26,839 nt of DNA from Promethearchaeota archaeon (GCA_048941265.1 JBHLNT010000046.1:1-26839); one strand, 5' to 3'; counted from the stretch's first letter, positions 446 through 26,839 are shown. The notes: generated by a model not told the origin, from the sequence alone. Translations and numbers: made by a program.

Positions 446-970
446 ATGAGTTTGAAGTTATATAAGGTTAAAAACCGTGAAATTATTCCTATCAATGATA
501 TAAAACTTGATAATGATGGAATTTATATTATTTTAGATAAACAAAGCAAGAGGCCTAAGATCTGGATTTGGAGTGGTTCTAATGCAAATATTCAAGATAA
601 ATATATCGCAGGAGCGTCTGCAACAAAAATAAAATCTAAAGAAAAACTTTATGGTGCTAGTATAGAAGTTGTAGAGGATGGGAGCGAACCTGAAAATTTC
701 CCTATCATTTCTGAAGAAAAAATAATTACATCATTAGAAAAAGTTGATTTAAAAGAAAGAGAAAAAATAGAAATTGAAGTTTCAATAAATGCAGAAGAAA
801 AAGTTAATACTACAGAAGGTTTAAAGATTGACGCTTCAGAAGGTGATACATTAGAAGGTGATGATCCAATCCTTATATTAAAAGAACAATTAAAAGTGTT
901 TTTAAAAGATATTTCTGAAAACCTGACAGATGTTATTGTAAAAATTAAAAATTTTTCTAAAAAGTTATAA
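446..970 (+). CDS. Single-domain gelsolin/villin-like protein with an acidic linker and C-terminal helix
   Basis: LDNDGIYIILD...KIWIWSGSNA...DKYIAGASATKI...IEVVEDGSEPENF matches the gelsolin repeat pattern (FILD, IyiWxG, A-xxx-A helix, v.eG.Ep..F). Confidence 0.8.
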   Translation: MSLKLYKVKNREIIPINDIKLDNDGIYIILDKQSKRPKIWIWSGSNANIQDKYIAGASATKIKSKEKLYGASIEVVEDGSEPENFPIISEEKIITSLEKVDLKEREKIEIEVSINAEEKVNTTEGLKIDASEGDTLEGDDPILILKEQLKVFLKDISENLTDVIVKIKNFSKKL

Positions 971-1001: not shown

Positions 1002-2318
1002 ATGTTAGATGCCGGTGTAGGAATTTCAATTGAAAAAGATAGTTATAAAGCAGGAAGAAAAGTAGCACAAGAAGCCCTCAATGCTATGAATTCTAAACCT
1101 AAATTAGCAATCCTAGCAGTAGATTCATTAACTCGTAGAGCATATAATTATAATGAGATATTAAAAGGTGTTAGAGAAGAAATTGGTACAGATATTATTC
1201 TAATCGGAAGTACAGTAAATGGGATCTTGGTAGGAGATCGATTCGCATTAAAAAGTGTCGGATTAATGTTAATTGGTGGCGATTTTACTATCGATAATTC
1301 TTATAATTTTCCAAAATCAAGATTAGAGTATGAAAAAATTGCTGAAAAAGTTTATCAAGACAGTCTAAATTTAACACCAAATGATAATCGTTTTATGTTA
1401 ATATTTTTAGATGGATTAAAATTTCCTAAAGAAGTTTTAGATAAACAAAAATCTCTGAATAGTCGATTTGTATCTCTTTTTTCTGGTTTAGTGAGAAAAA
1501 TGTTTATGAAACAACTCGAAGAATTCAAAGAAAAAGGATTAGGAGTATCTTCCGCCCAAGAATTATTAGAATCTCTTTATGCTAAGGGATGGAAATGGTC
1601 AATAATTGGTAATGCTGCTACAAATGTAAGGAATTATGATTCTGTAGAATTTTATAATGATGAAGTTGGAGATGATAATTTTATTGGAGCCGTGATTTCT
1701 CCAATTGGATCAACTAAATTTGGACTGGGATATTCTGCAGGTGCAGAATATACAGGGAATTCAGCAACTGTTAATAAAAATATTGGAAGTTTTCTTTTAA
1801 GAATTGATGGAAAACCAGCATTAAAAGGTCTGTGCGACGCTGCTAATATCAAAATAGAATCTTTAAAAGAATTAAAAAGTTCTGATTATCTTAACTATTA
1901 TAATATCGTTGGTACTACGGAAAAATCGAATGATAAAGAAGTAATACATCTTGTCGCAACAATGACCAATCCTGATCTTGAAAGCCTTATTATAACAGGA
2001 TTTCCTTTTAATAAAGTTCCAAAAGAGATTCAAATATTTCAAAGTAATATGAAAATTTTGCATAAAACAGCTCAAAGTGCAGTGAGTCAAGCTTTAAATA
2101 ATTTATCTGAACCAAAATTTCTCTTAGGATTTGATTGTGGTATTAGATTTTTTGCTTATGGTGATAATCTTCCTAATATTGTTAAAACAATTGATGATAC
2201 TATTGGAAAAGATATTCCTCGAATGATCGTTGGTTCTGGTGGTGAAATATTTGGGCGAAGGGATTTAGATTTTTATTTTAATAATATGACTTTTATTACT
2301 TTAGCTGGTGGAGATTGA
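1002..2318 (+). CDS. Stand-alone FIST_N/FIST_C sensory domain protein
   Basis: N-terminal DSYKAGRKVAQEAL, LIGST, FLDG, RIDGKPA, and FIST_C motifs FDCGIR, GGEI, FNNMT. Confidence 0.85.
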   Translation: MLDAGVGISIEKDSYKAGRKVAQEALNAMNSKPKLAILAVDSLTRRAYNYNEILKGVREEIGTDIILIGSTVNGILVGDRFALKSVGLMLIGGDFTIDNSYNFPKSRLEYEKIAEKVYQDSLNLTPNDNRFMLIFLDGLKFPKEVLDKQKSLNSRFVSLFSGLVRKMFMKQLEEFKEKGLGVSSAQELLESLYAKGWKWSIIGNAATNVRNYDSVEFYNDEVGDDNFIGAVISPIGSTKFGLGYSAGAEYTGNSATVNKNIGSFLLRIDGKPALKGLCDAANIKIESLKELKSSDYLNYYNIVGTTEKSNDKEVIHLVATMTNPDLESLIITGFPFNKVPKEIQIFQSNMKILHKTAQSAVSQALNNLSEPKFLLGFDCGIRFFAYGDNLPNIVKTIDDTIGKDIPRMIVGSGGEIFGRRDLDFYFNNMTFITLAGGD

Positions 2319-2462
2319 ATTACTAAAGAAAACTAACTAATGTAACTCTTTTTTTTTTAAACTTTATATATTTTTATATATTGATATAATCTTTAAGAAT
2401 CGCTATAACATAAAGTGGGAATAAAGAAAATATAAATATAAAATCTTATATGTGTAGTATAA

Positions 2463-2502
2463 AGTGATTTTTAGAAAATATTTTGTTTGTATAAAAATCA
2501 CT
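2463..2502. promoter_or_regulatory. Perfect 11-bp inverted repeat upstream of luxE (operator or 5'-leader hairpin)
   Basis: AGTGATTTTTA (2463-2473) / TAAAAATCACT (2492-2502) with an 18-nt spacer. It lies downstream of TATA-like tracts (~2428-2452) and 30 nt before the luxE ATG. Confidence 0.5.
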
Positions 2503-2532
2503 ATTTTAAGAAATTAGGTAGAAAAGGATAAA

Positions 2533-3717
2533 ATGATAATCGATAATATATTAGAAAAAGCAGAAATTTTTTTTGATAAAAAGAATTTAAAAGAATTAGA
2601 AACACAGAGATTTAAGGCTATTAATGAGACTACAAGTCACCAATTTGAGAGCTGTGTATCTTATCGTCAGTTTTGCAAGCAGAAAAATTTTAATCCACTT
2701 AGGGATTTAAAATCATCTGAGGATATAAGTAAAATTCCGTATTTAACTACTGCAAACTTTAAAGTCAAATCTGGAAAACCAAAAGGGTTTCTCTGTGTTC
2801 CAGAAAGTGATATCCAGATATGGACACTTTCAAGTGGGACTTCTGGAGATCCTTCAATGATAGGAAGAGATAATATAAATTTAGTAAGATATTTTAGGGC
2901 AATGCATACGGTTTTTAGCATGATGTCAAATTGTACAGAATATGATTGGACTCTTATGTTTCAACCCCCTGTAAGACAAAGATTTACAATTAAAGATAAA
3001 GTCCAAGAACCTCAACATCACATGAGTTATATTTTTAACGTAGAAAATAGACTTCCTATGGATAAACGAGTTTACGCTTTGAAATTAGCAGACGAAGAAG
3101 CAAGAAAACAAGGAAAAATGTTTGAATTTGATCCTGACACTACATTTGGTTTTCTAAATTCAAATCCAAAAGCAAAAGGTTATGGATGGATTGGAGGTGC
3201 AGTTCCTATAATCTACTCCACATTAAAAGGCTATTATGATAAAACAGGTCAAGTTTTTGACATAGGAGAAGAATCTTTTCTAATATTTGGAGGGGGCTGG
3301 AAAACTTATTCTGGACCTCCAATTACACCTGAAAAATTTCGTGAGGATATGTCAAAAATTTTAGGAATTCCTAAACAACATATTCTTGATACATACAGCT
3401 TTACAGAAACGGATTGTTTTATTTCTGAATGTGAATATCATAACAAACATTGTCTTCCATGGCAAGATGTAATTATAAGAGATGTTGAAACGCTTGAACC
3501 TGTTGAGATGGGAGAAAGAGGTTTGATAAATATAATTAATCCAATCGCATATAGCTATGCAGGAATTTCAATACTTCAGGACGATATCGCAAGAATAACA
3601 ATGGTAAACGAATGCCCATGTGGAAGACAAGGTAAAATATTAGAAATTGAGGGTAGAGCTGAAGGTGCTGAAGCAAGAGGTTGTGGTGCTCAAATTGCTG
3701 ATGATACTTTAAGTTAA
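2533..3717 (+). CDS. luxE: LuxE-family acyl-protein synthetase (long-chain fatty acid--protein ligase)
   Basis: SSGTSG adenylation loop, GGGWK, DTYSFTE, QDD, CPCGRQG, and C-terminal GRAEGAEARGCG carrying the acylated Cys typical of LuxE. Confidence 0.88.
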   Translation: MIIDNILEKAEIFFDKKNLKELETQRFKAINETTSHQFESCVSYRQFCKQKNFNPLRDLKSSEDISKIPYLTTANFKVKSGKPKGFLCVPESDIQIWTLSSGTSGDPSMIGRDNINLVRYFRAMHTVFSMMSNCTEYDWTLMFQPPVRQRFTIKDKVQEPQHHMSYIFNVENRLPMDKRVYALKLADEEARKQGKMFEFDPDTTFGFLNSNPKAKGYGWIGGAVPIIYSTLKGYYDKTGQVFDIGEESFLIFGGGWKTYSGPPITPEKFREDMSKILGIPKQHILDTYSFTETDCFISECEYHNKHCLPWQDVIIRDVETLEPVEMGERGLINIINPIAYSYAGISILQDDIARITMVNECPCGRQGKILEIEGRAEGAEARGCGAQIADDTLS

Positions 3718-3862
3718 AAAATTAAAAAGAATACAAATAGGATAAAGTCAATATGATTTAGAGTCAAAATTGTAGGGGATACTAAGTCAATCAAATTCAA
3801 TTTTAAAGAAATAATTTAAAAATATTTTTTTTTTATTTTTAATAATTTGGAGGTATAAGTGA

Positions 3863-5557
3863 ATGATAAAAAAAATTAATATTCCAGCTTTTGTTTTTCA
3901 ACCTATCTATAAAGAAAACTCAACAAAAGAAGTAATTAAAAGACACGATGATATATTAGAAATCGAATTTCCTATATTTGAAAAGGAAGAAGTGCTGAAT
4001 ATTGCTGAGAAGTTAGCTTTGAAAAAAAGAAGAGCTCATGATAGAAATATAGATGATATATTAGAAGTTATTGATCATGTAGGAGATTTATGGCGTAATC
4101 CTAACTATGATATCCATAAGGAAGCTTTAGAAATTATAGCATTGATGACAGGACAATCAAAAAAATTATGCGAAATCGAATTAATGGGAACATTATCCTT
4201 ATGGAGTAGAGGCATAGCTGAAGCAGAATTGATGGGAGAGATAGGGGGGAAAAATTATTTAGAAGATTGGGTTACAAAAGGAGACATGAGAATTCATGCT
4301 CAACCAAGAGGTTTAATTTTACATAATATGGCTGGAAATGCATTTAATTTAGGATTGTTAACAATATTTTATGGATTAATAACTAAAAATGTGAATTTAA
4401 TAAAACTCTCACATGGAGAACCATATATTACAGTCAGATTATGCGAATCAATAGCAGACATAGATAAAAAAATAGCTAATGAAATTGTTGCTCTTTACTG
4501 GAAAGGAAGTAGAACTGATATATATGATGCTCTATTTCATTCAGGAACTATAGATGGTGTTCTTGCATGGGGTGGTATTGATTCAATTGAAGAAGTAAGA
4601 CGAAAAGCATATCATTATGGAATAAAAATAATTGACCATGGTCCAAAACTTTCCTTTAGTGTTATTTCGGAGGATATTTTTAAAGATATTAATCAAATGA
4701 GAGAAATTGCTCAAAAATTAGCAATTGATATCATTTGTTGGAATCAAAAGGCTTGTTTAAGCCCGAGGGTTATCTATATTGTTGATGATCCTCAAAAATC
4801 AGCCACATTCGAAAAATATACAAATGATTTATCTTCAAAATCTTCAGATTTACAGGGATCTTCTCAACCTAATAATAAGTTTTTTGATTATAATGTTGAT
4901 GAATCAAGTGGTTCTGAAATCTCTACTCTTATGCAAAGATCTTTAAAATTACTTAGAAATGAATGCTCAGAATTATCTCCGAAAGGTTTTGCTAAAATGC
5001 TAGCTAAGGGATTTGAAAAAATAGATGAGATTCTCCCACGAGCTCATTTGACAAGCGTAGATAGCTTATCAACAGCTAAAAAACGAGAATATTTTTTCAT
5101 GAATTATAGTATCAACAAAGCCGCACGTATTTTTACTCCTCCAAAGAACAAACTTGATTGGACAGTAATCTATTTCCGAGATTTACCAAAAATGAAAGAA
5201 ATTGATATGTGTCAAGATAGATTCGTGATTGTGACAAGAATCTTTAATATTCAGAACCTAATATACTCTATAAGAAAAGAAAAATTACAGAAATACATGC
5301 AAACTGTCTCAATTTATGGAACAGATGATTTTGTAAAGAAAGTAGCTGAGGATTTATCTTTAATTGGAGCTTATAGATTTCCTAGGATTGGAGAACATAA
5401 TATCCAACCAGTTGGAGCTCCTTGGGATGGGCATTATGTTTTACAAGATATGATAAAATGGGTTTATATAGGATATACTGGACAAGAAAATGATAATAAT
5501 GAAACTCAAAAGATAAGTCTTTTTAAAGGTTTGGAAATTCCAGATACAAATGAATAA
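3863..5557 (+). CDS. luxC: LuxC-family acyl-CoA/acyl-protein reductase
   Basis: QPRGLILHNMAGN, KNVNLIKLS, AWGG, HGPKLSF, NQKACLSP (catalytic Cys), QTVS, RIG and PWDG motifs. GGAGGT SD-like motif upstream. Confidence 0.9.
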   Translation: MIKKINIPAFVFQPIYKENSTKEVIKRHDDILEIEFPIFEKEEVLNIAEKLALKKRRAHDRNIDDILEVIDHVGDLWRNPNYDIHKEALEIIALMTGQSKKLCEIELMGTLSLWSRGIAEAELMGEIGGKNYLEDWVTKGDMRIHAQPRGLILHNMAGNAFNLGLLTIFYGLITKNVNLIKLSHGEPYITVRLCESIADIDKKIANEIVALYWKGSRTDIYDALFHSGTIDGVLAWGGIDSIEEVRRKAYHYGIKIIDHGPKLSFSVISEDIFKDINQMREIAQKLAIDIICWNQKACLSPRVIYIVDDPQKSATFEKYTNDLSSKSSDLQGSSQPNNKFFDYNVDESSGSEISTLMQRSLKLLRNECSELSPKGFAKMLAKGFEKIDEILPRAHLTSVDSLSTAKKREYFFMNYSINKAARIFTPPKNKLDWTVIYFRDLPKMKEIDMCQDRFVIVTRIFNIQNLIYSIRKEKLQKYMQTVSIYGTDDFVKKVAEDLSLIGAYRFPRIGEHNIQPVGAPWDGHYVLQDMIKWVYIGYTGQENDNNETQKISLFKGLEIPDTNE

Positions 5558-5602: not shown

Positions 5603-7405
5603 TTACAGAAGTAAAATATCTAACCTTTTTACCTTGCTATACACTATTTCTTCTTTCTGATAAATTAGTATGATCTCCAAACTATCTGTTATTGGTTTTG
5701 TACGTTCTAATTGATAATTATGAAACTTCCATGTTAATATAAAATCTTGATTTGGTTTAAGTCTTGGAGGGATATATTTATCATTATCATCATACTCGGC
5801 TCTAAAATCTAGATTTTTTGGATAATCAATAAATATTGATAAATTCGAAATTATAACTGCTGAAGTATTTTTAATTTTAACAAGTAATTGAACATCATAA
5901 TCAAATGTTTTCAAGCTATGTGTAATTCTCCATTTTTTTAAGAATAATAAATCATCTTCTATATCACTAATATCTCTTATTGGTTCAATAATGTCTTTAT
6001 TGATTACGACTCTAAGCATTTTACTCTTTAAGAGAATCTTTAAAATCTCCATTAATTTTGATTTAGTCAGATGAAATTTATCACATAATTCCGTTATTTT
6101 AACTTGACCTCCTTGTTTCAAATTCAAATCCAACCAAACACTCATAGTCATATAACTAAGTTGAGGCATTATATCGTAAAGTAATTTTATTAAGTTCTGC
6201 CTTCTATTTTCTTCATTTTCGTCATCCATTAATCCTTTCGAAATTAATATATCATAACATGTTGAATAGATGTCATAATGCGGATTAGGAGATAATATCA
6301 TTCTTAATTTTAAATAATTAAATTGGGTAAGATTATCTAATATATAGGTTAATAATTTAGAAAAAATATTTTTCATCAATTGAAGATTTGAATTATATAA
6401 GTTTCGTATTACACTATTTAGCATTGAAAAAATTTGATCATCTGATAATGTCAAATCTTTGAAAATATTATAAAACCTGTTAAAACCGTGTTTAACTATT
6501 GAATGTCTTAAAATATCCTCAATTGCTCCTAAATTATCTAATTTCTTATTTTTTATGAGAGAAAATAAGATATCATCAAATAATACAGGATGATATTCAA
6601 TAATTTCCTTGATAATTTTAACTATTAAATTATTTATTAAATAATCATCATAATCCAAAAGAAAGAATAACTCTTTTTTGATAGGTTTTATTAATTCTTT
6701 TTTTTTAATTGCGATTTTACCTATTAAAAATAAAATTTTTTCTTGTGCTAACCATTCTCGATTAGGTATAGACTTAACCAAATTTGTAATATCTTCAACT
6801 GCAAATGTTTCTATGAATAGTTTTAATAAAAAGTCAAGAACTTCTCGTATTACATCAACATCTTTTTCATCATATAAAACCTCTAATTCTTTATCAAATT
6901 TTCTTATTTCAGTAGCCATCTGTAAAGAGATTTTGTTTAAAAATTGAATAATTTTAATCCTAGTTGTCCAAATTTCATCTTTTAAACTTCTTATTAAACA
7001 CTCTAATATATCTTGTTGATATTCTGAAAATTCAAAAAAAATTTCAATTAATATATTAATAAATGTTTCCCTGACAAATGGTTCAAATCCATTCATTCGT
7101 GAAATTATAAATTTAATTTCACTCTTAACTAAATTTTTATTTTTGATGATGTTATTAGAAAATAGATAGATTGCCATTTCTTGTATATTTTCATCAAAAC
7201 TATCTATAAGAGGTTTTATTTTTTGTAACTGTTCTAAAGATAAATCGAAACCGTTTTCTTGAATTTCTAATATTCCAGTTAAAATTTCTGGTAATAATGA
7301 ATGATTATTATCGCTATTAATTAATGATATTAAATTATCTAAAGCTTCTCCATATTTTCCATCTCTTATATCTTGTTTAATATATTTTAAATCAATCTCA
7401 GTTAT
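5603..7405 (-). CDS. HEAT-repeat protein with a winged-helix (PCI-like) segment and a C-terminal Ig-like beta-sandwich; ~600 aa if started at ATA 7405
   Basis: HEAT-like motifs (LKDEIWTTR, DEKDVDVIREV, REWLAQE, LLDYDDYLI). The frame stays open 76 codons upstream of the ORF-track ATG (7177) up to ATA at 7405, with AAGGGGTTG just upstream. Confidence 0.7.
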   Translation of the reverse strand: MTEIDLKYIKQDIRDGKYGEALDNLISLINSDNNHSLLPEILTGILEIQENGFDLSLEQLQKIKPLIDSFDENIQEMAIYLFSNNIIKNKNLVKSEIKFIISRMNGFEPFVRETFINILIEIFFEFSEYQQDILECLIRSLKDEIWTTRIKIIQFLNKISLQMATEIRKFDKELEVLYDEKDVDVIREVLDFLLKLFIETFAVEDITNLVKSIPNREWLAQEKILFLIGKIAIKKKELIKPIKKELFFLLDYDDYLINNLIVKIIKEIIEYHPVLFDDILFSLIKNKKLDNLGAIEDILRHSIVKHGFNRFYNIFKDLTLSDDQIFSMLNSVIRNLYNSNLQLMKNIFSKLLTYILDNLTQFNYLKLRMILSPNPHYDIYSTCYDILISKGLMDDENEENRRQNLIKLLYDIMPQLSYMTMSVWLDLNLKQGGQVKITELCDKFHLTKSKLMEILKILLKSKMLRVVINKDIIEPIRDISDIEDDLLFLKKWRITHSLKTFDYDVQLLVKIKNTSAVIISNLSIFIDYPKNLDFRAEYDDNDKYIPPRLKPNQDFILTWKFHNYQLERTKPITDSLEIILIYQKEEIVYSKVKRLDILLL

Positions 7406-8836: not shown

Positions 8837-8917
8837 AATGATTAAAAATATTAGAAGCTTTAAAAAGTTAAATCTGTTTCTTTAAAAACGTTGTATTAAA
8901 TGATATAGGTGCTAAAA

Positions 8918-11308
8918 ATAGCTAAGATTATCCTTGAAAGGGAACAAATGAGGGTTTTAATTGAAGAATATGAAAAATTTACTGAAGAAATCATTGAGGT
9001 TAAAAACAATAACACTTGGGTTCCCATTCTTAAAAATTTTAACGGGAATAGCACTTTAAGGGTGTGGTCGAATAAAAGAATTTTCAGTAAATCGTTAAAT
9101 TATTTAAAAAGGACCAAAAAAAAAACCTATTATCAGTTAGATGATGAGGATTTTAAGTTAAATTTAGATTATTGCCTCGAAGAAGATAATATTCTTCATA
9201 TACGATATAAATTATTAAATAAACGCGATATAACATTCTCTAAACTTATTGTTAATTATGAGATTTTATTGGGAAAAAATCCTGATTATACATGGGTGCC
9301 CCATTTAGTCCCCAAGGAAAATTTTGTAATTGGAGATCATGTCTTTCGATCACCTGTTATAATTTATAAAAAGGGGAATATTTCTTTTGCATTTTTTCCG
9401 GATCTTAAGACATTAGGACAAAATAGGCCATTTCAAACATTTTTAGATTTGAACTTACACCCTGAAGATGATAACTTACCAGAAATGTCATTTGGTTATG
9501 GAAATTATAAACCCTATAAGCACGTATATTTTAAACATAGACCTTCTTATGAATATGAGGTTAAAAAGAACACCAATTTAACTTTTAGATATTATATTAT
9601 TGCTTTCAATGAAAAAAATGTCAAGGAAATTCTTGAATATATTAATCACTTCTTTTGGGAAAAATATGGACGAAGAGCGTTTTATGAAAGCATAAATCCT
9701 CAAGTTGTGCCTTATGAAATCAATGTGAAAGAAGCTTTTAAGGCAATTTTTGAAAGACATAACTTCTGGGGTAACTTTAAAATTAATAATGTTGAATGTG
9801 GTGGATTTTGGCAGCAATCGGGAGTGGGAAAAAATAAGTTGCCTATAAAATTTATTCAACCTAAAGAGATGCAAACATTTAAAAAACAACGTTTTTATTC
9901 TCCAGGAACAGCAGTCATTTGGAATAATGCATGGTTTTCAAATATAAGATCCAGTTATGGATTGAGATTTTTTGGAGAGAAGTGGTCCGATATGAATTAC
10001 TTAGAAAAAGCTGAAAAAATGTTAAACACTGTATTATTTCTTCCAGACATTAACGGTATTTTCCCCAGTTTAATATTACCTGCTGGGTATAATTCAGATG
10101 AATACTCAATCGTAAATGGAGTACACGCTTTTTTTTGTCTTGAGGATTTTAATGTTGTAGATGCTTCTTTAACAATGTATTGGACAATAAAGCTATTTCA
10201 AGATTTTGGAGGTAATGAGCAACGGATAAGACAGAAATGTAAACAATTAGCTCATCTATTAAAAGAAATTCAGTTAGAAAATGGTGCTATTCCTATTATT
10301 ATTAATTTTAATCAAGAAACTAATGCCCCCATCATTAAAGAAGATTTAATAGATTCTGCTAGTTCAGGTGCTCCATTAATGTTTCTTTTAGAATATTATA
10401 AAATATCCCGAGATAAAGAAATCATTGAAGTATGTGAAAAAATTTCCCAATATATTGAAAATGAAATTATCCCAGATGACAAATGGCATGATTTTGAGGC
10501 ATTTTACTCTTGTACTTATCCTCCACCCTTTAATTATGATAACAATTCAAAAAGCCATATTAAAAATAATCTCTGCATTTACTGGTGTGCTGAGAGCTTT
10601 AAAGAATTATACAAAATAACTAAAAAGATAGAATATCTAAAATTGGGTGAGCAGATTCTCGCCACACTTTCATTATTTCAACAGGTTTGGAATATGCCTT
10701 ATATTAGTATTGATACGTTTGGAGGTTTTGGAGTACAAAACGCAGATGCGGAATTAAATGATGCACGTCAAGCCCTTTTTGTGAAAACGTACATGGAATA
10801 TTACTTAGAAACAGGGAAATATGAATACATGGAGCGTGGAATTGCAGCATTACGGGCAAGCTGGGTAACGCAGATGATTCCTGAATTTAAAGAAATTTGT
10901 TCGGGTAATTTAAAGGGGTTAGATACTGTTGATGGAATTGATAAAGGAATTCTTTTTGAAAATTATGGGCATTCTGGTAAAGATCAAAGAAATCGTGGAA
11001 TTGTTAATTTAGATTGGGGAAATGGTTCAGCGGCCTACGCCACTGCGTATGCTAAAAAACATTTTGGGGATCTTTTTATAGACTTTAAAGGACAATTTAT
11101 ATTTGGTATTGATGGAATACTAATGAAAAAATTCGATTTTATAGAGGAGAAGGTATTCATTGAATTTGACATAATTCCAAAAAAGAATACTATTTTAATA
11201 AAAGCCAGAGATTCACCCGAACATGGATGTGAACTAATTCTAAACAGAAAGTCATTTGGCAATTTTAAAAAATCATCTCTTAATAATGGTTTTAACCTTG
11301 ATATCTAA
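8918..11308 (+). CDS. Uncharacterised large protein: beta-rich N-terminus plus probable (alpha/alpha) toroid (six-hairpin glycosidase-like)
   Basis: Repeated helical-hairpin motifs (YLEKAEKM, IQLENGAI, LLEYYKISRDKE, ELYKITKKIEYL, EYYLETGKYEYMERG). Start uncertain: GTG 8909, ATA 8918 or ATG 8948. Confidence 0.55.
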   Translation: MAKIILEREQMRVLIEEYEKFTEEIIEVKNNNTWVPILKNFNGNSTLRVWSNKRIFSKSLNYLKRTKKKTYYQLDDEDFKLNLDYCLEEDNILHIRYKLLNKRDITFSKLIVNYEILLGKNPDYTWVPHLVPKENFVIGDHVFRSPVIIYKKGNISFAFFPDLKTLGQNRPFQTFLDLNLHPEDDNLPEMSFGYGNYKPYKHVYFKHRPSYEYEVKKNTNLTFRYYIIAFNEKNVKEILEYINHFFWEKYGRRAFYESINPQVVPYEINVKEAFKAIFERHNFWGNFKINNVECGGFWQQSGVGKNKLPIKFIQPKEMQTFKKQRFYSPGTAVIWNNAWFSNIRSSYGLRFFGEKWSDMNYLEKAEKMLNTVLFLPDINGIFPSLILPAGYNSDEYSIVNGVHAFFCLEDFNVVDASLTMYWTIKLFQDFGGNEQRIRQKCKQLAHLLKEIQLENGAIPIIINFNQETNAPIIKEDLIDSASSGAPLMFLLEYYKISRDKEIIEVCEKISQYIENEIIPDDKWHDFEAFYSCTYPPPFNYDNNSKSHIKNNLCIYWCAESFKELYKITKKIEYLKLGEQILATLSLFQQVWNMPYISIDTFGGFGVQNADAELNDARQALFVKTYMEYYLETGKYEYMERGIAALRASWVTQMIPEFKEICSGNLKGLDTVDGIDKGILFENYGHSGKDQRNRGIVNLDWGNGSAAYATAYAKKHFGDLFIDFKGQFIFGIDGILMKKFDFIEEKVFIEFDIIPKKNTILIKARDSPEHGCELILNRKSFGNFKKSSLNNGFNLDI

Positions 11309-22153: not shown

Positions 22154-22594
22154 TTATTCTTTCTTTTCTAAATAAAGTGTATAGTGGCAATAGCGATTAT
22201 CTGTTTGTAATATACATTCGTGAATATCCGAGGAATATTTGTATTGGGGGTCCAACTCATTTAAGAAGCCACCTGTATATGGAGTACACACGCTCTTTTG
22301 AATTAATTCAGCTTTTTCTGGATCAAATTTGCCTCCTATAGGACAGAATTTCTTCGGATGTTTAATTTTTATTTCTAATTGTTTATCATTTATTCGAGTA
22401 ATTTGTACGTCTGCACCCAGTGCGGTATAACTTTTTTTTAATCCGGTTTCTATGCTTGAAAATCCTTTTTTTTTATAAATCTTAGCAAGATTAGCACCTA
22501 GTCCAGCAGAAATCGTTTTTGGAAAATTTTCTCCTCCGATATTAATCATTTCTTTAATATATGCTTGAAAAAACTTTAAAGCATCTGTAGTCAT
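22154..22594 (-). CDS. V4R/MetOD1-like small ligand-binding domain protein with four Cys
   Basis: Helical N-terminus with GLGANLA, beta hairpin, then FCPIGG, VCTPYTGGFL, IHECI, YCHYTL. AAGGGG SD-like motif upstream. Confidence 0.6.
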   Translation of the reverse strand: MTTDALKFFQAYIKEMINIGGENFPKTISAGLGANLAKIYKKKGFSSIETGLKKSYTALGADVQITRINDKQLEIKIKHPKKFCPIGGKFDPEKAELIQKSVCTPYTGGFLNELDPQYKYSSDIHECILQTDNRYCHYTLYLEKKE

Positions 22595-23462: not shown

Positions 23463-26400
23463 TTAAGGTAATACAGGAATTAAGACTGTGAAATTGTCCT
23501 CTTCAACTGATAGCCTACCATTTACACTTTCTAAAATCCGTTCAATTAATAAAAATCCTAAAAGTAATCCCCTTATTTTTTCATTTTTGCTATCTTCCCG
23601 CATTAATATTTTCTCCTTGCTAATATCTGAGATGAGGGATTGATTATCAATAAATGTCAATTTTAAATAACTTTTATCGTTGTATTGGATTTTAGTAAGT
23701 ACAATGTTTATATGAATCATAATTTTCTCAGTATATTTTACTGAACTTATTAATATGTCTTCAAAAACATCGATTAAGTAATCATTAGCTAAAACATAAA
23801 CTTCTTTAAAGGGAGAATCGAAATTAACTGTTAATTCTTTTTCTGGATTATCATTTTTCACATTTTCTATGGCGTTATTAATAATTTTAATAATTTCTTT
23901 ATGTTTTAATGGCAATTTACTTTCTTCAATTTGTGTAAGTTTCCTTATAACGGTAACTAATTTTTCAGCCTCGAAACATTTTTGTTTTATATTTTTTATT
24001 AAAAATTTGATGTTAATTAGTTTTTGAAGATCCTCCTCTTTCGAAAAAATATCAATATTCGATTGTATGTTTTTAAAAATATTATTTACATCATGGATAA
24101 ATAATTCACGGTAAAAATTTGCCCGATCATATTCATTATGATATCTCTCTCTGCTTTCCAACAATTCCAGCTCTGATTGTTGCTTTTCGAGACTAATACC
24201 TATTAATTCTGGAAAAATGCTTAATAATTCAATATTCTCATATTTCCAATCTTTAGGTTTTTCAACATTATCAAATGCTATGAATCCTGCTAGATCTTGA
24301 TTAATTTGGATAGGATATATTAAGCTAGAAGCAGTATTTCCATTTTCCATTAAATATTTTATGTTTATAGCTTCTTCGGGTAACTCTGAAACATTTTTTA
24401 TATAAATACAATCTTTATTTTGAAGATTTTTTAGCAGCCAAGGATAATTTTTTAAATCAATCTCCTGAAAATTTTCTTTAATTTGAATTACATCTTCATC
24501 ACACCATTCATAGCTCACTTTCATGGTTTTTCTGTCTTTATCAAGAAGATATATATACACTCGGCTTAAACTACTTAATCTACCAATATCAAGAAGCGAT
24601 TTATTTATCGCATTACTAATATCTTTAGCACCCACAAATTGGGGTGAAATAATTGATAAAATCCTTTCAAACTTTATGATATTTTTTATATCTTCTTCTA
24701 TATTCTTTTGTGTCGTAATATCATAAGCGATAATTTGAAAAAATGTCTCATTCTTAATTATAGCGAATGATGTTTGGATTTTTGTCCAGATTATGCCTCC
24801 ATCTTTTTTAAATAACTGTACATCTAAAAGTGGTAAAATAACATTTCTTATTTCTGCTTTAAAACGTTTAAATAGGAGTAATAAATGATTTTGATGAACA
24901 ATGGAAAGATCAATAAATTTTTTATCCAATAATTCCTCTCTCTTATAACCTAATAAATCTTCCATTGCAGGATTACAGTCAGTAATCCGCCCTTTAGAAT
25001 TTATGAGTATTATTGAAAATGGAGAATTTTCAAATAAATGACGATATTTTTTTTCAGAATCTCTTAACTTCCTTTGTGTTTGTTTACGTTCAGTTATGTC
25101 TCTTAAGATGCATTGAATTAAATTTTGTCCTCCCATCTGAACTTGACTTGTATTAATTTCAACTGGAATCTTGTTATTTTGAGAATTTATAATACTAATC
25201 TCAATAGGATGCGAAATTTCCATTTGAATTTGATTTAAAATCTTATTCATAAAATCTCCGTTTTCATCCTCAAGCTTCAATTGACTGATGTGCATCCCTA
25301 TTATATCTTCTGCAGGCAATAATAATAATTTCTCTGTTTGTTCATTTGCATCCACAATTATTCCAGACTTACGATCAATGATGAAAATCGCATCTCGAGC
25401 AGCTTTAAATAAAGCTTGATAACGTAATTCTGCAATTTTTAACGCTTCTACTGTTGGTTCAGATGCCATTAACTTATTATTAATTGTATTATGAATTTCT
25501 TGAAGTATTGTCTGAACATAAGATTTATTTAAATAATATTCCTTAATCTGGTCAAATTTTTCAAAAATATAACTATTGAATTGGTCAAGAATCGCTCTTG
25601 GTACTTTTTCATTACAATATAAGATTAAGCAAAGTGGTAAAGCTTCTCCACGAACCTGCTCGTCAATAATATAATCAAAAAAGATTGCTGCTTTCGCATT
25701 AAGGTGCGGTAATGGTAAAAGAACGGATATTTTTTTAAATTCATTGTGACCAAAAATAAATTGTGAAATAGAAAAGCATCGAACTGCAACTAATTCAGGA
25801 TCATCAAAAGCTTCTGAAGGATGAACAGCTATAACTTTTACACCTATATTTTCATCCCAACTGGCAAATATCACACCTAAGTCACTTTTAGGTTTAGGAT
25901 AAACTCTCTCAGAGATCTGTAACGCTAGCCAATTGAAAGCATCATCAATATTTATGTTTTTAACTGCACTTGTTAAAAAATACTTAATGGGTCTCCCTCC
26001 TAATTTATCTAAATCCATCGCTTGAGTTAAATATTCAATATTAGGATCTATTAAATCAATTTTATTAAACATAATCAGTAATGGTAATTCACTCATTTCA
26101 GGCATATGTGCAATTGTGTGAAGTAAATCTCGCGCATCCGGAAATTTAATTCGATCATTTATATCAAGAACAAAAATTAAACCATCTTGTCCTTTTAGAT
26201 AAGGCTTCCATAATTCCCTATATTTAGGATAGCCTGGTGTGTCGTAAGTGAGTAAAGAAATATTATTGATTATTATTCTTGAAATATCTACACTTATTGT
26301 GGGAGGAGTATTTTTAAAGATCGATTTACGTCTGCATTTAATAATTGTGGTTTTCCCGGCTTGTGATAGACCATAAATTAAAATTCTAGCATCTTTACGT

Positions 26401-26839
26401 TCAAAGATAATATTTTCTTCTGGAAGTGATTTGTAAAAATTAAATAGTAATTCATTTATTTCAGTTAACTTAGCAGGGTCCCCCTCATAGACGTTTGATG
26501 TAGTATAGAAAGCTTTATATCCCTCTTCAATTTTTTTTAATTCATTGGCAAATCTTTCTAAAAGCTCTTGTGATAATGTCATGTTAAATTTACTCTTGTT
26601 ATCAATTACTATGGATATCATCAATCTCTCTATTTTTCCTGGACTGTATTCACTTCTTATTCTGAAAATTAGATTTGCACTAATAATACTTCCAAAGGTA
26701 TGAACAAAAAAACCTTTGTCATAGAGCTCTAATAATGTGGGAATTTGATTAGATTCTTCAGATTCAACCGATTCTGGTACTTTAAAAAATATTTTTGGTC
26801 TAAAATAAGGATTATGATGGCTTAAAATTAAAATATTCA
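23463..26839 (-). CDS. Multidomain signalling protein (5' end beyond the window): longin/uDENN-like, Arf-like GTPase, longin/uDENN-like, PAS, PAS, GAF, degenerate histidine kinase
   Basis: G1 GLSQAGKTT, G2 PPTI, G3 DTPG, G4 NKID, G5 SAV. PAS motifs (YQALFKAARDAIFII...LRDITERK; YRHLFENSPFSI...DITTQK). GAF (RVYIY, YEWC, GFIAFD). H-box FIHDVNN. The frame is open from the ORF-track start (26624) to the window end. Confidence 0.88.
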   Translation of the reverse strand, partial: NILILSHHNPYFRPKIFFKVPESVESEESNQIPTLLELYDKGFFVHTFGSIISANLIFRIRSEYSPGKIERLMISIVIDNKSKFNMTLSQELLERFANELKKIEEGYKAFYTTSNVYEGDPAKLTEINELLFNFYKSLPEENIIFERKDARILIYGLSQAGKTTIIKCRRKSIFKNTPPTISVDISRIIINNISLLTYDTPGYPKYRELWKPYLKGQDGLIFVLDINDRIKFPDARDLLHTIAHMPEMSELPLLIMFNKIDLIDPNIEYLTQAMDLDKLGGRPIKYFLTSAVKNINIDDAFNWLALQISERVYPKPKSDLGVIFASWDENIGVKVIAVHPSEAFDDPELVAVRCFSISQFIFGHNEFKKISVLLPLPHLNAKAAIFFDYIIDEQVRGEALPLCLILYCNEKVPRAILDQFNSYIFEKFDQIKEYYLNKSYVQTILQEIHNTINNKLMASEPTVEALKIAELRYQALFKAARDAIFIIDRKSGIIVDANEQTEKLLLLPAEDIIGMHISQLKLEDENGDFMNKILNQIQMEISHPIEISIINSQNNKIPVEINTSQVQMGGQNLIQCILRDITERKQTQRKLRDSEKKYRHLFENSPFSIILINSKGRITDCNPAMEDLLGYKREELLDKKFIDLSIVHQNHLLLLFKRFKAEIRNVILPLLDVQLFKKDGGIIWTKIQTSFAIIKNETFFQIIAYDITTQKNIEEDIKNIIKFERILSIISPQFVGAKDISNAINKSLLDIGRLSSLSRVYIYLLDKDRKTMKVSYEWCDEDVIQIKENFQEIDLKNYPWLLKNLQNKDCIYIKNVSELPEEAINIKYLMENGNTASSLIYPIQINQDLAGFIAFDNVEKPKDWKYENIELLSIFPELIGISLEKQQSELELLESRERYHNEYDRANFYRELFIHDVNNIFKNIQSNIDIFSKEEDLQKLINIKFLIKNIKQKCFEAEKLVTVIRKLTQIEESKLPLKHKEIIKIINNAIENVKNDNPEKELTVNFDSPFKEVYVLANDYLIDVFEDILISSVKYTEKIMIHINIVLTKIQYNDKSYLKLTFIDNQSLISDISKEKILMREDSKNEKIRGLLLGFLLIERILESVNGRLSVEEDNFTVLIPVLP

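Follow-up and report, generated by a model that had tools for sequence, protein, structure and literature searches.

What does a protein do that joins, in one chain, an Arf-family GTPase to prokaryotic PAS and GAF sensors and to the remains of a histidine kinase? The question is raised by a gene at one end of a 26,839-nucleotide stretch of DNA from a Promethearchaeota archaeon (GCA_048941265.1 JBHLNT010000046.1:1-26839; "the window" below means this whole stretch). A first-pass annotation, made from the sequence alone, had described the product as a soluble protein in which an Arf-like GTPase is fused to a two-component sensor module with two PAS domains, a GAF domain and a HisKA/HATPase-like tail, and had put it forward as the window's best candidate for an undescribed system. 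Our results are best explained by a multidomain signalling protein that resides in the cytoplasm of an Asgard (Lokiarchaeia-like) archaeon. Its domains run in the order NPRL2-like longin, Arf-family G domain, FLCN/NPRL2/C9orf72-like longin, long helix, PAS, PAS, GAF, helices resembling a dimerisation and histidine phosphotransfer (DHp) domain, and degenerate HATPase_c. The earlier list of domains thus stood for Arf and both PAS domains, and weakly for GAF and HATPase_c, but it had overlooked about 300 residues (1-145 and 313-470) that form two longin domains; these count among the best-conserved regions outside the G domain, and any mechanism has to build on them. We propose, as a reading with roughly even chances, that the longin-G-longin core is an Arf-type switch with built-in longin partners, that the sensors gate it and the kinase-derived module frames a dimer, and that the protein would signal through the nucleotide state of its G domain.

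The frame lies on the minus strand, ends with a stop codon at 23463-23465 and comprises 1124 codons, in agreement with the more than 1120 uninterrupted codons first reported; its 5′ end is open at the window edge. A search for related loci with a single protein query yielded 4 loci from 25 pattern matches, and in two of them, L001 and L003, the orthologous open reading frames (ORFs; 1122 and 1123 aa) start with a TTG codon placed one codon ahead of the residue that matches window residue 1. Since the closest relatives of the fusion protein are likewise 1125 aa long, only the start codon of the fusion gene falls outside the window. The highest 19-residue Kyte-Doolittle mean of the protein is 1.3, and because hydropathy predicts no membrane helix, its description as soluble is reasonable.

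To place the gene in a family, residues 1-470 were searched against a 5.8-billion-protein collection, which gave 125 proteins at E≤1e-3 among 8000 scored candidates; 120 of these were listed, and counts out of 120 below refer to the listed members. These are clusters at 90% identity from NCBI, JGI, ENA and Logan assemblies; 115 of them combine Arf with one or more PAS families, and in 77 the length falls between 1100 and 1149 aa. Their source labels read "PAS domain S-box protein" or "ADP-ribosylation factor-like protein", and the labels of their metagenome-assembled genomes include Promethearchaeota, Loki-, Thor-, Hod-, Heimdall-, Odin- and Hermodarchaeota. Among the 77 full-length members, mean pairwise identity is 0.73 in the G domain, 0.70 in the longin that follows it (the middle longin), 0.69 in PAS1, 0.65 both in the N-terminal longin (N-longin) and in the domain resembling a catalytic and ATP-binding (CA) domain, and 0.50 in both the GAF and the DHp regions. 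Recurrence in so many independent assemblies indicates that the fusion is genuine and no chimera at the GTPase/PAS junction. The same count tells against the claim that the architecture is undescribed: with at least 115 clusters at 90% identity, and partly in print, it is in good part what the first-pass annotation had named as the finding that would undo its claim, an architecture "already described and common". The gene is a real, conserved Asgard gene of an uncharacterised fusion class that is common in databases; the class is already known, because surveys report Asgard fusions of longins with GTPases and of NPRL2-like longins with two-component domains.

Domain calls were made with Pfam and NCBIfam hidden Markov models and judged against curated cut-offs. 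Residues 146-306 match Pfam Arf with 110.9 bits (cut-off 22.3); other small-GTPase models also recognise the G domain (small_GTP 60.4 bits, Ras 54.3, Roc 31.7). Gtr1_RagA had no Pfam match to the fusion protein at E≤1, and in shorter or tail-less relatives it was found in 6 of 8 at 31.6-37.2 bits, as against 122-133 bits for Arf. The five G motifs lie at 156-163 (G1), T180, D199-x-P-G202, N258-K-x-D261 and T289-S-A, and the strings YRELWKPY, DGLIFVLD, PLLIMFNKID and AFNWL, quoted earlier as their context, are all present in the translation. Nine of these positions (G156, G161, K162, T180, D199, P201, G202, N258 and K259) are each invariant in 120/120 members, and G5 reads T-S-A/G in the family. 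Consistent with the Pfam result, the best phmmer match of the G domain in the PDB is Arf1 (3lrp, E 1.5e-26), and the best 60 rows are all Arf, Arl or Sar; likewise, a PDB profile search with the family alignment returned only Arf-family proteins among the best 60 of 883 matches, and did not inform on the other domains. Residues 1-470 were modelled with AlphaFold2 (mean predicted local distance difference test, pLDDT, 81.8; predicted template-modelling score, pTM, 0.47). Foldseek aligned this model with Arf6, Arl8b, Arf1, Arl3 and the Asgard ArfR structures 8ouk and 8oum at a target-normalised TM-score (TM) of about 0.9; the best 36 rows are all Arf, Arl, ArfR or Arf fusions, and single-domain targets reach 0.83-0.94. 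Sequence and fold therefore agree with the Arf-like character first assigned to the domain. Two features set it apart within the chain. Directly before it lie a linker with a helix at 121-136 and a 112-residue longin, apparently in place of the N-terminal amphipathic membrane helix of the Arf type, and at position 203, which holds the catalytic Gln of switch II (DxxGQ), the protein has Tyr (D-T-P-G-Y); the family has Q in 62, K in 50, Y in 4 and H in 4 of 120 members.

The regions flanking the G domain gave nothing meaningful in Pfam at E≤10 in the window, L001 or L003 proteins (best E 0.024, to an unrelated family). In the AlphaFold2 model, however, residues 2-101 and 320-433 both adopt the order beta-beta-alpha-beta-beta-beta-alpha. 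When residues 308-470 were modelled alone (pLDDT 86.0, pTM 0.83; beta-beta-alpha-beta-beta-beta-alpha-alpha), the top Foldseek match of the middle domain was 8yqg, the longin of a Lokiarchaeota Roadblock-Longin protein (E 8e-5, TM 0.55). Further matches were to GATOR1 chains (9o5d_D, 9v0j_A, 7t3b_B), the yeast Lst4 longin (4zy8), SEA-complex chains, FLCN/FNIP2 chains and DENND1, with a probability of 1.00, E-values from 8e-5 to 1e-2 and query-normalised TM from 0.42 to 0.61. Because of these fold matches, the middle domain as modelled is a longin of the kind found in eukaryotic GTPase-activating protein (GAP) complexes. An Atlas search with it was uninformative (0.76 to unnamed Promethearchaeota clusters). 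A roadblock domain, which the report of Tran et al. would lead one to expect after the G domain, was considered and rejected: what the fold search brings up are longins, and an hhalign comparison with the Robl_LC7 protein of L001, itself validated by Pfam, came back empty (E 0.15-0.26). The N-longin is 38% identical (E 4e-32) to the N-terminal domain of a 314-aa relative, P0134. The Atlas model of P0134 pairs with eukaryotic NPR2 (PF06218) clusters (TM 0.72 and 0.71) as well as with DENND11 (0.65); through this model, an NPRL2-like identity of the N-longin is suggested as a lead only. The two longins of the window protein can be aligned to one another in collinear order, if weakly (hhalign E 0.012 over 98 columns), and prediction of a complex between residues 1-140 and 313-440 scored 0.00 in both runs, which speaks neither for nor against their pairing.

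Conservation within the middle longin is concentrated in two motifs. W327 and D328 are found in 119/120 members, E329 and G332 in 120/120, R396 in 117/120, G397 in 118/120 and P401 in 119/120; in the model, W-D end strand 1, G332 opens strand 2 and R396 sits in the loop between beta-4 and beta-5. Searched exhaustively, the 128-residue longin core gave 98 representatives at E≤1e-3, of which 69 were aligned after the 23 closest rows and 6 short or fragmentary ones had been left out. These remote relatives share the consensus W-D-E-x-x-G-P ... V-R-G-G, and their fusion partners include TPR (20), double zinc ribbons (8), receiver (REC) domains (4), PAS (4) and Arf (4). In eukaryotic GAP longins, a GP motif is reported just ahead of strand 2 in FLCN, NPRL2, SMCR8 and C9orf72, and in C9orf72 the essential W33-D34 adjoins G38-P39 (PMC12290439), so that the +5 spacing from W327 to G332 equals that from W33 to G38. 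The C9orf72-SMCR8-ARF1 structure is described as having both longins cup ARF1, with SMCR8 R147 as the arginine finger that Arf1 GAP activity requires, and the C9orf72 W33G/D34K mutant as having lost GAP activity (PMC8213707). Near-invariant in the family, R396 is a candidate arginine finger. In the N-longin, P14 is present in 94/94 members with a residue there, preceded by P in 40, G in 36 and R in 15, and position 66 is basic in 99/120 (R in 76, K in 23).

The two PAS domains announced after the G domain were readily recovered, with PAS_9 at 482-583 (91.8 bits), PAS at 597-689 (88.4 bits) and TIGR00229 over two stretches (138.5 bits). The nearest solved relative of PAS1 is the PpsR PAS domain, and those of PAS2 are the heme-PAS structures of E. 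coli DosP, 1v9y and 9bgv (PDB phmmer, E ~3e-7). In the natively numbered chain 9bgv, H648 of PAS2 aligns with DosP residue 77, which we take to be the proximal heme ligand. Of the 110 members in which this column is filled, 89 have His; the distal Met position of the DosP heme-PAS is not conserved in the family. Heme or gas sensing by PAS2 through H648 may be kept as a lead only. As for the GAF domain, the window protein itself stays below both cut-offs (GAF_3 751-884, 24.0 bits vs 27; GAF, 18.2 bits vs 22.4), and the assignment is supported by way of relatives: P0011 scores 23.5 bits on GAF, above its cut-off, and GAF families are precomputed on P0002 and P0003.

The tail had been called HisKA/HATPase-like, of which only the second half could be upheld. 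HisKA had no match in the window protein and in 0/9 members scanned, and HATPase_c reaches 16.1 bits at 1021-1118 (cut-off 26.4); homology to HATPase_c follows from relatives (P0009 34.5, P0049 61.4 and P0104 59.4 bits). NCBIfam PhoR and BaeS give partial matches from residues 946 and 957, and a PDB sequence search with the C-terminal 248 residues found 0 matches at E≤1. Motif columns were assigned from the canonical members P0049, P0089 and P0104, which score 52-61 bits on HATPase_c. The DHp region carries a conserved F-Y-K/R-E-L-F-x-[N/H/Q]-D, in which the H-box residue is H915 here and N in 67, H in 24 and Q in 11 of 120 members. The N-box Asn of histidine kinases binds Mg-ATP; at its position the window protein has S1031 (N in 21, S in 73 of 120), and at the other N-box position it has D1027, where 107 members have N and canonical relatives read N...N. 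The G1 box (DxGxG) is D-N-Q-S-L, its two glycines being kept in 17/120 and 16/120 members, and His, Asn and both G1 glycines occur together in 4/120 only. Because the ATP-binding motifs are missing, the "two-component" tail is probably not a working kinase; the CA-like domain is conserved for some role, with ATP binding unlikely.

How this state arose was examined by quick maximum-likelihood inference on the longin-G-longin region, in a tree that keeps all 123 rows and is rooted on 3 stand-alone longin-G-longin proteins. At its base stand members with a canonical kinase, members without a tail, and very long multi-PAS members. In an 83-row clade that includes the window protein (Shimodaira-Hasegawa-like approximate likelihood ratio test, SH-aLRT, 99), every tailed row has lost each of the three ATP markers, whereas basal and sister lineages retain them. 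On these motifs the pseudo-kinase state is derived, and the tree places the loss of the ATP markers once, at the base of the 83-member clade. The 6-row subclade of the window protein keeps the H-box His, whereas a 74-row clade has lost it in all but one row. Nested inside the clade with kinase motif loss is a 52-row clade in which the catalytic Gln of the G domain has become Lys in all but two rows, so that changes on both enzymatic sides are phylogenetically stacked.

The family is also modular. Its members range from longin-G proteins (~310 aa) and longin-G-longin proteins (435-487 aa) through longin-G-longin with ~170 unassigned residues (623-641 aa), with one PAS and a kinase (830-833 aa), with two PAS and a kinase (931-971 aa) and with two PAS, GAF and a kinase (1100-1131 aa) to multi-PAS giants of 1772-1897 aa. 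The stand-alone proteins P0131-P0133 (435-487 aa) cover 88-95% of residues 1-470. In the ~170 C-terminal residues of the 623-641-aa members (P0113-P0118), no Pfam family, PAS or kinase domain was found, which leaves an unassigned alternative output or input module. The ~310-aa relatives were also considered as counterparts of the solved "LokiRagM", an identification that we rejected, as no such entry occurs among 44 matches at E≤1e-20. Longin-G relatives at 33-42% identity lie on contigs labelled Candidatus Bathyarchaeota (L004 1703-2527, P0137, P0150); either the module reaches beyond Asgard archaea or these contigs are mis-binned. A separate observation concerns P0049 (971 aa, canonical kinase motifs) and P0111 (957 aa, degenerate), which have the same source label and a longest contig of 29,523 bases in common; they may be neighbouring paralogues, hinting at heterodimeric pairs.

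Taken as a mechanism, our proposal would run as follows. The working unit would be longin-G-longin, which also occurs alone. Its G domain would bind GTP or GDP and serve as a switch, and the flanking longins would regulate or hold it, in cis or across a dimer, much as C9orf72-SMCR8 cups Arf1 and as GATOR1 and FLCN-FNIP act on Rags. PAS1, PAS2 (possibly with heme bound through H648) and GAF would take in signals, while the long helix and the DHp/CA module would keep the protein a parallel dimer and relay conformational change. Signals would leave the protein through the nucleotide state of the G domain and its effectors, not through ATP-dependent autophosphorylation; a phosphorelay as output is unlikely. 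A more specific version, which we consider unlikely, makes the longin-G-longin core a single-chain prokaryotic counterpart of the eukaryotic GAP assemblies in which a GTPase is cupped by a pair of longins. The Arf-like domain would be gripped by the W327/D328 face, R396 would supply an arginine finger in cis or across the dimer, and PAS/GAF input, possibly heme or gas sensing through H648, would gate the GAP step through the kinase-derived dimer scaffold.

Several points weigh against these proposals. With Tyr in place of the catalytic Gln, the G domain may be a poor GTPase or one that works in a different way. How the domains pack against one another is uncertain in the 1-470 model (pTM 0.47), and the fold matches of the middle longin are moderate (TM 0.45-0.61). 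The residue after G332 is I, V or L, with Pro in just 6/120 members; the N-longin here reads R13-P14, not G-P, and its position 66 is Pro in the window protein, not Arg or Lys. R396 is only putatively equivalent in position to the eukaryotic arginine fingers. Some phosphoryl chemistry is possible, as the clade keeps the H-box His and CA identity is still 0.65. Nucleotide binding, GAP action, dimerisation and heme binding all stand as predictions.

The same parts can be read in other ways. The protein might be a working sensor histidine kinase whose longin-GTPase-longin region is an input, reporting the GTP/GDP state or an upstream guanine nucleotide exchange factor (GEF) or GAP, with phosphotransfer from H915 to a response regulator elsewhere. 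Inputs first and DHp/CA last is indeed the standard kinase layout, H915-D916 is kept in the clade of the window protein, the tail still resembles BaeS and PhoR in part, its CA domain remains conserved, and the full motif set of His, N-box Asn and DxGxG survives in those 4/120 members, which are basal relatives with 52-61 bits on HATPase_c. Yet in the window protein both N-box Asn residues are replaced and the G1 box is degenerate, HATPase_c stays well under its cut-off with no PDB sequence match for the tail, HisKA is absent from all members scanned, Asn stands in for His in 67/120, and the window holds no receiver gene; we therefore regard a working kinase as distinctly improbable. Loss may instead have gone further than we propose, to a pseudo-enzyme scaffold in which kinase and GTPase catalysis are both gone and which would serve as an adaptor with nucleotide or ligand bound, or else as a partner whose His is phosphorylated in trans by an active paralogue in a heterodimer. 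Tyr at position 203, Lys there in the nested 52-row clade, the loss of ATP markers with retention of His in the 6-row subclade, and the unconfirmed hint of paired paralogues from P0049 and P0111 all fit such a scaffold. All GTP-binding motifs are invariant, however, other GTPases without the Gln still hydrolyse GTP with help in trans, and paralogue pairing is not shown for this genome, so that we hold the scaffold to be a real possibility, though on balance a doubtful one.

A last alternative would remove the question altogether, namely that assembly or gene calling has wrongly fused two genes, one for a GTPase and one for a sensor kinase. In favour of it, the window consists of one contig only. 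Against an artefact stand the union of Arf and PAS in 115/120 clusters, the 77 members of 1100-1149 aa, the unbroken ORFs of L001 and L003, and a junction that belongs to the best-conserved parts of the protein (middle longin 0.70, PAS1 0.69). Because the fusion is conserved across many independent assemblies, this explanation is effectively refuted. The Arf-type switch with built-in longin partners thus remains the reading that we carry forward, and the parts on which it draws are located in the table.

Table. Position of the fusion gene and of its domains in the window, with the basis of each assignment
Feature	Window coordinates	Strand	Basis or remark
Whole ORF, 1124 codons + stop	23463..26837	-	Start codon one codon past window end
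N-terminal longin-like domain, residues 1-112	26502..26837	-	AlphaFold2 model, topology beta-beta-alpha-beta-beta-beta-alpha, block pLDDT 73-91
Helical linker, residues 113-145	26403..26501	-	DSSP on model; pLDDT <50 at residues 141-146
Arf-family G domain, residues 146-312, G1-G5 intact, position 203 Tyr	25902..26402	-	Pfam, PDB phmmer, Foldseek
Middle longin domain, residues 320-436, W327-D328-E329-x-x-G332 + R396-G397	25530..25880	-	AlphaFold2, Foldseek
Long helix joining longin to PAS1, residues 438-469	25431..25526	-	DSSP helices 438-458 and 460-469
PAS1, residues 472-585	25083..25424	-	Pfam PAS_9 482-583
PAS2, residues 597-715, H648	24693..25049	-	Pfam PAS 597-689; TIGR00229 592-716
GAF-like domain, residues 745-884	24186..24605	-	GAF_3 and GAF, both under cut-off; relative P0011 passes
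DHp-like helical region, residues ~895-1000, H915-D916	23838..24155	-	Partial PhoR/BaeS matches; no HisKA match
Degenerate HATPase_c-like domain, residues 1021-1124	23466..23777	-	16.1 bits vs cut-off 26.4; homology via P0009, P0049, P0104

The surroundings of the gene vary between loci. Divergently upstream of the fusion gene, L001 and L003 carry a Ras-family GTPase (170-175 bits) and a GNAT acetyltransferase (L001 5150-7379, L003 5015-6660), and the L001 upstream region also holds a Roadblock/LC7 protein; for the window gene, the matching region lies beyond the window end. The downstream gene is an alpha/beta hydrolase in L001 and L003 and a methylpurine glycosylase in the window, so that the window has no neighbour in common with them. 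A scan of 18 window ORFs turned up no receiver domain. A 146-aa ORF at 22154-22594 (-), two genes downstream of the fusion, has several Cys, a C-P-I-G-G stretch and no credible Pfam match; it may resemble ligand-binding V4R/TRAPPC3-like domains. At the far end of the window, whose GC content is 0.23-0.35, a 174-aa ORF at 446-970 (+) matches the gelsolin repeat of Pfam (E 2.1e-07). Such cytoskeletal domains are a eukaryotic signature that is typical of Asgard genomes, and together with the labels of the relatives this match gives good support to an Asgard origin. The 174-aa ORF adjoins a 143-aa ORF without a Pfam family that runs off the window start, and it is followed at 1002-5557 (+) by a FIST-domain protein and then a LuxE-like acyl-protein synthetase and a LuxC-like acyl-CoA reductase, which may form a fatty-aldehyde or fatty-alcohol module beside a sensor-type protein. 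Neither the 524-aa ORF at 5603-7177 (-) nor the 799-aa ORF at 8909-11308 (+) matched any Pfam family even at E≤1, and all four unannotated window ORFs gave nothing credible in Pfam at that threshold.

The interest of the family is that of a mechanistic lead and not of the discovery of an architecture, given more than 100 similar database entries. Eukaryotic nutrient and trafficking control depends on longin complexes that act on Arf and Rag GTPases; Asgard archaea have many longins and many Arf/Rag-like GTPases, and which longin acts on which GTPase is described as an open question (PMC12290439). A conserved covalent link between an Arf G domain and two longins is a natural "Rosetta-stone" pairing that makes the clients of Asgard longins directly testable, and the fusion is a compact construct for probing GAP (or GEF) activity. 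Should the protein indeed be a single-chain GAP counterpart, it would identify Arf-family GTPases as clients of Asgard longins of the WD/GP/Arg type, and sensor-gated longin GAP signalling would predate eukaryotes. The family is also a clear example of a histidine kinase decaying to a non-catalytic scaffold while the GTPase side remains under strong constraint.

Among known systems, the closest are the fusions reported from Asgard archaea themselves. Longin- or roadblock-fused Arf/Rag-like GTPases have been reported (Tran et al. 2024, PMC10933270; Zhu et al. 2025, PMC11914678), with a roadblock domain after some of the GTPases (Tran et al.), and Rag-family GTPases fused to longin are likewise noted by Liu et al. 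(bioRxiv 10.1101/2020.10.19.343400). The proteins of Tran et al. and Zhu et al. and the ArfR of Vargova et al. (bioRxiv 10.1101/2024.02.28.582541) have in common with the window protein an Arf-annotated G domain with a longin on one or both sides, and the ArfR structures 8ouk and 8oum match its G domain at TM ~0.9. Unlike them, the window protein has a longin, not a roadblock, after the G domain, and then ~650 residues of PAS-PAS-GAF-kinase remnant; the main texts of these three papers make no mention of PAS or histidine kinase, though their supplements may differ. Liu et al. also report NPRL2-like longins fused to two-component domains and a prokaryotic wiring of a eukaryote-like growth-control module. 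Joining an NPRL2-type longin to prokaryotic sensor or kinase modules, their fusions fall in the same class as the window protein, and kinase degeneracy and the W-D-E-x-x-G and R-G motifs are absent from the passages of that preprint that were compared. No description of the longin-Arf-longin-PAS-PAS-GAF-pseudokinase family, its kinase decay or its WD/RG motifs was found in the main texts of Asgard surveys or by literature searches, though supplements and figures may contain it.

A non-fused precedent for kinase-like sensors that work with small GTPases and roadblock-type regulators is offered, as far as the parts consulted describe them, by the bacterial conservons (PMC4316618; PMC13343842; PMC13621833). 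The actinobacterial CvnA-D systems consist of four separate proteins, among them a membrane-bound sensor, an MglA-type GTPase and an MglB-type roadblock regulator, whereas the window protein unites an Arf-type GTPase, longins and a kinase without ATP motifs in a single soluble chain. With canonical PAS-GAF histidine kinases it has in common tandem PAS/GAF domains before a helical dimerisation region and a Bergerat-fold domain, and basal family members are canonical; it differs from them in having neither the N-box Asn, the G1 box nor a HisKA match, and no receiver nearby. Roco/LRRK2 proteins offer a further likeness, a Ras-superfamily GTPase and a kinase-type module in one chain with dimerisation-linked regulation; their Roc, COR and Ser/Thr kinase domains are unrelated to the window protein, and no homology is claimed.

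The eukaryotic longin pairs C9orf72-SMCR8 (acting on Arf1), GATOR1 NPRL2-NPRL3 (on RagA) and FLCN-FNIP (on RagC) have in common with the window protein the longin fold, two longins per GTPase and a conserved Arg. C9orf72 comes nearest, having a WD motif with the same +5 spacing to Gly and, as would hold here, an Arf-family GTPase as client. Unlike these GAPs, the window protein is one chain without DENN or NPRL2 C-terminal domains, and its GAP role is predicted only; its middle longin is without the Pro of the GP motif, and its N-longin is without both the Gly and the basic residue. The eukaryotic complexes, finally, are wired to lysosomal nutrient sensing, whereas the window protein is wired to prokaryotic PAS/GAF sensing.

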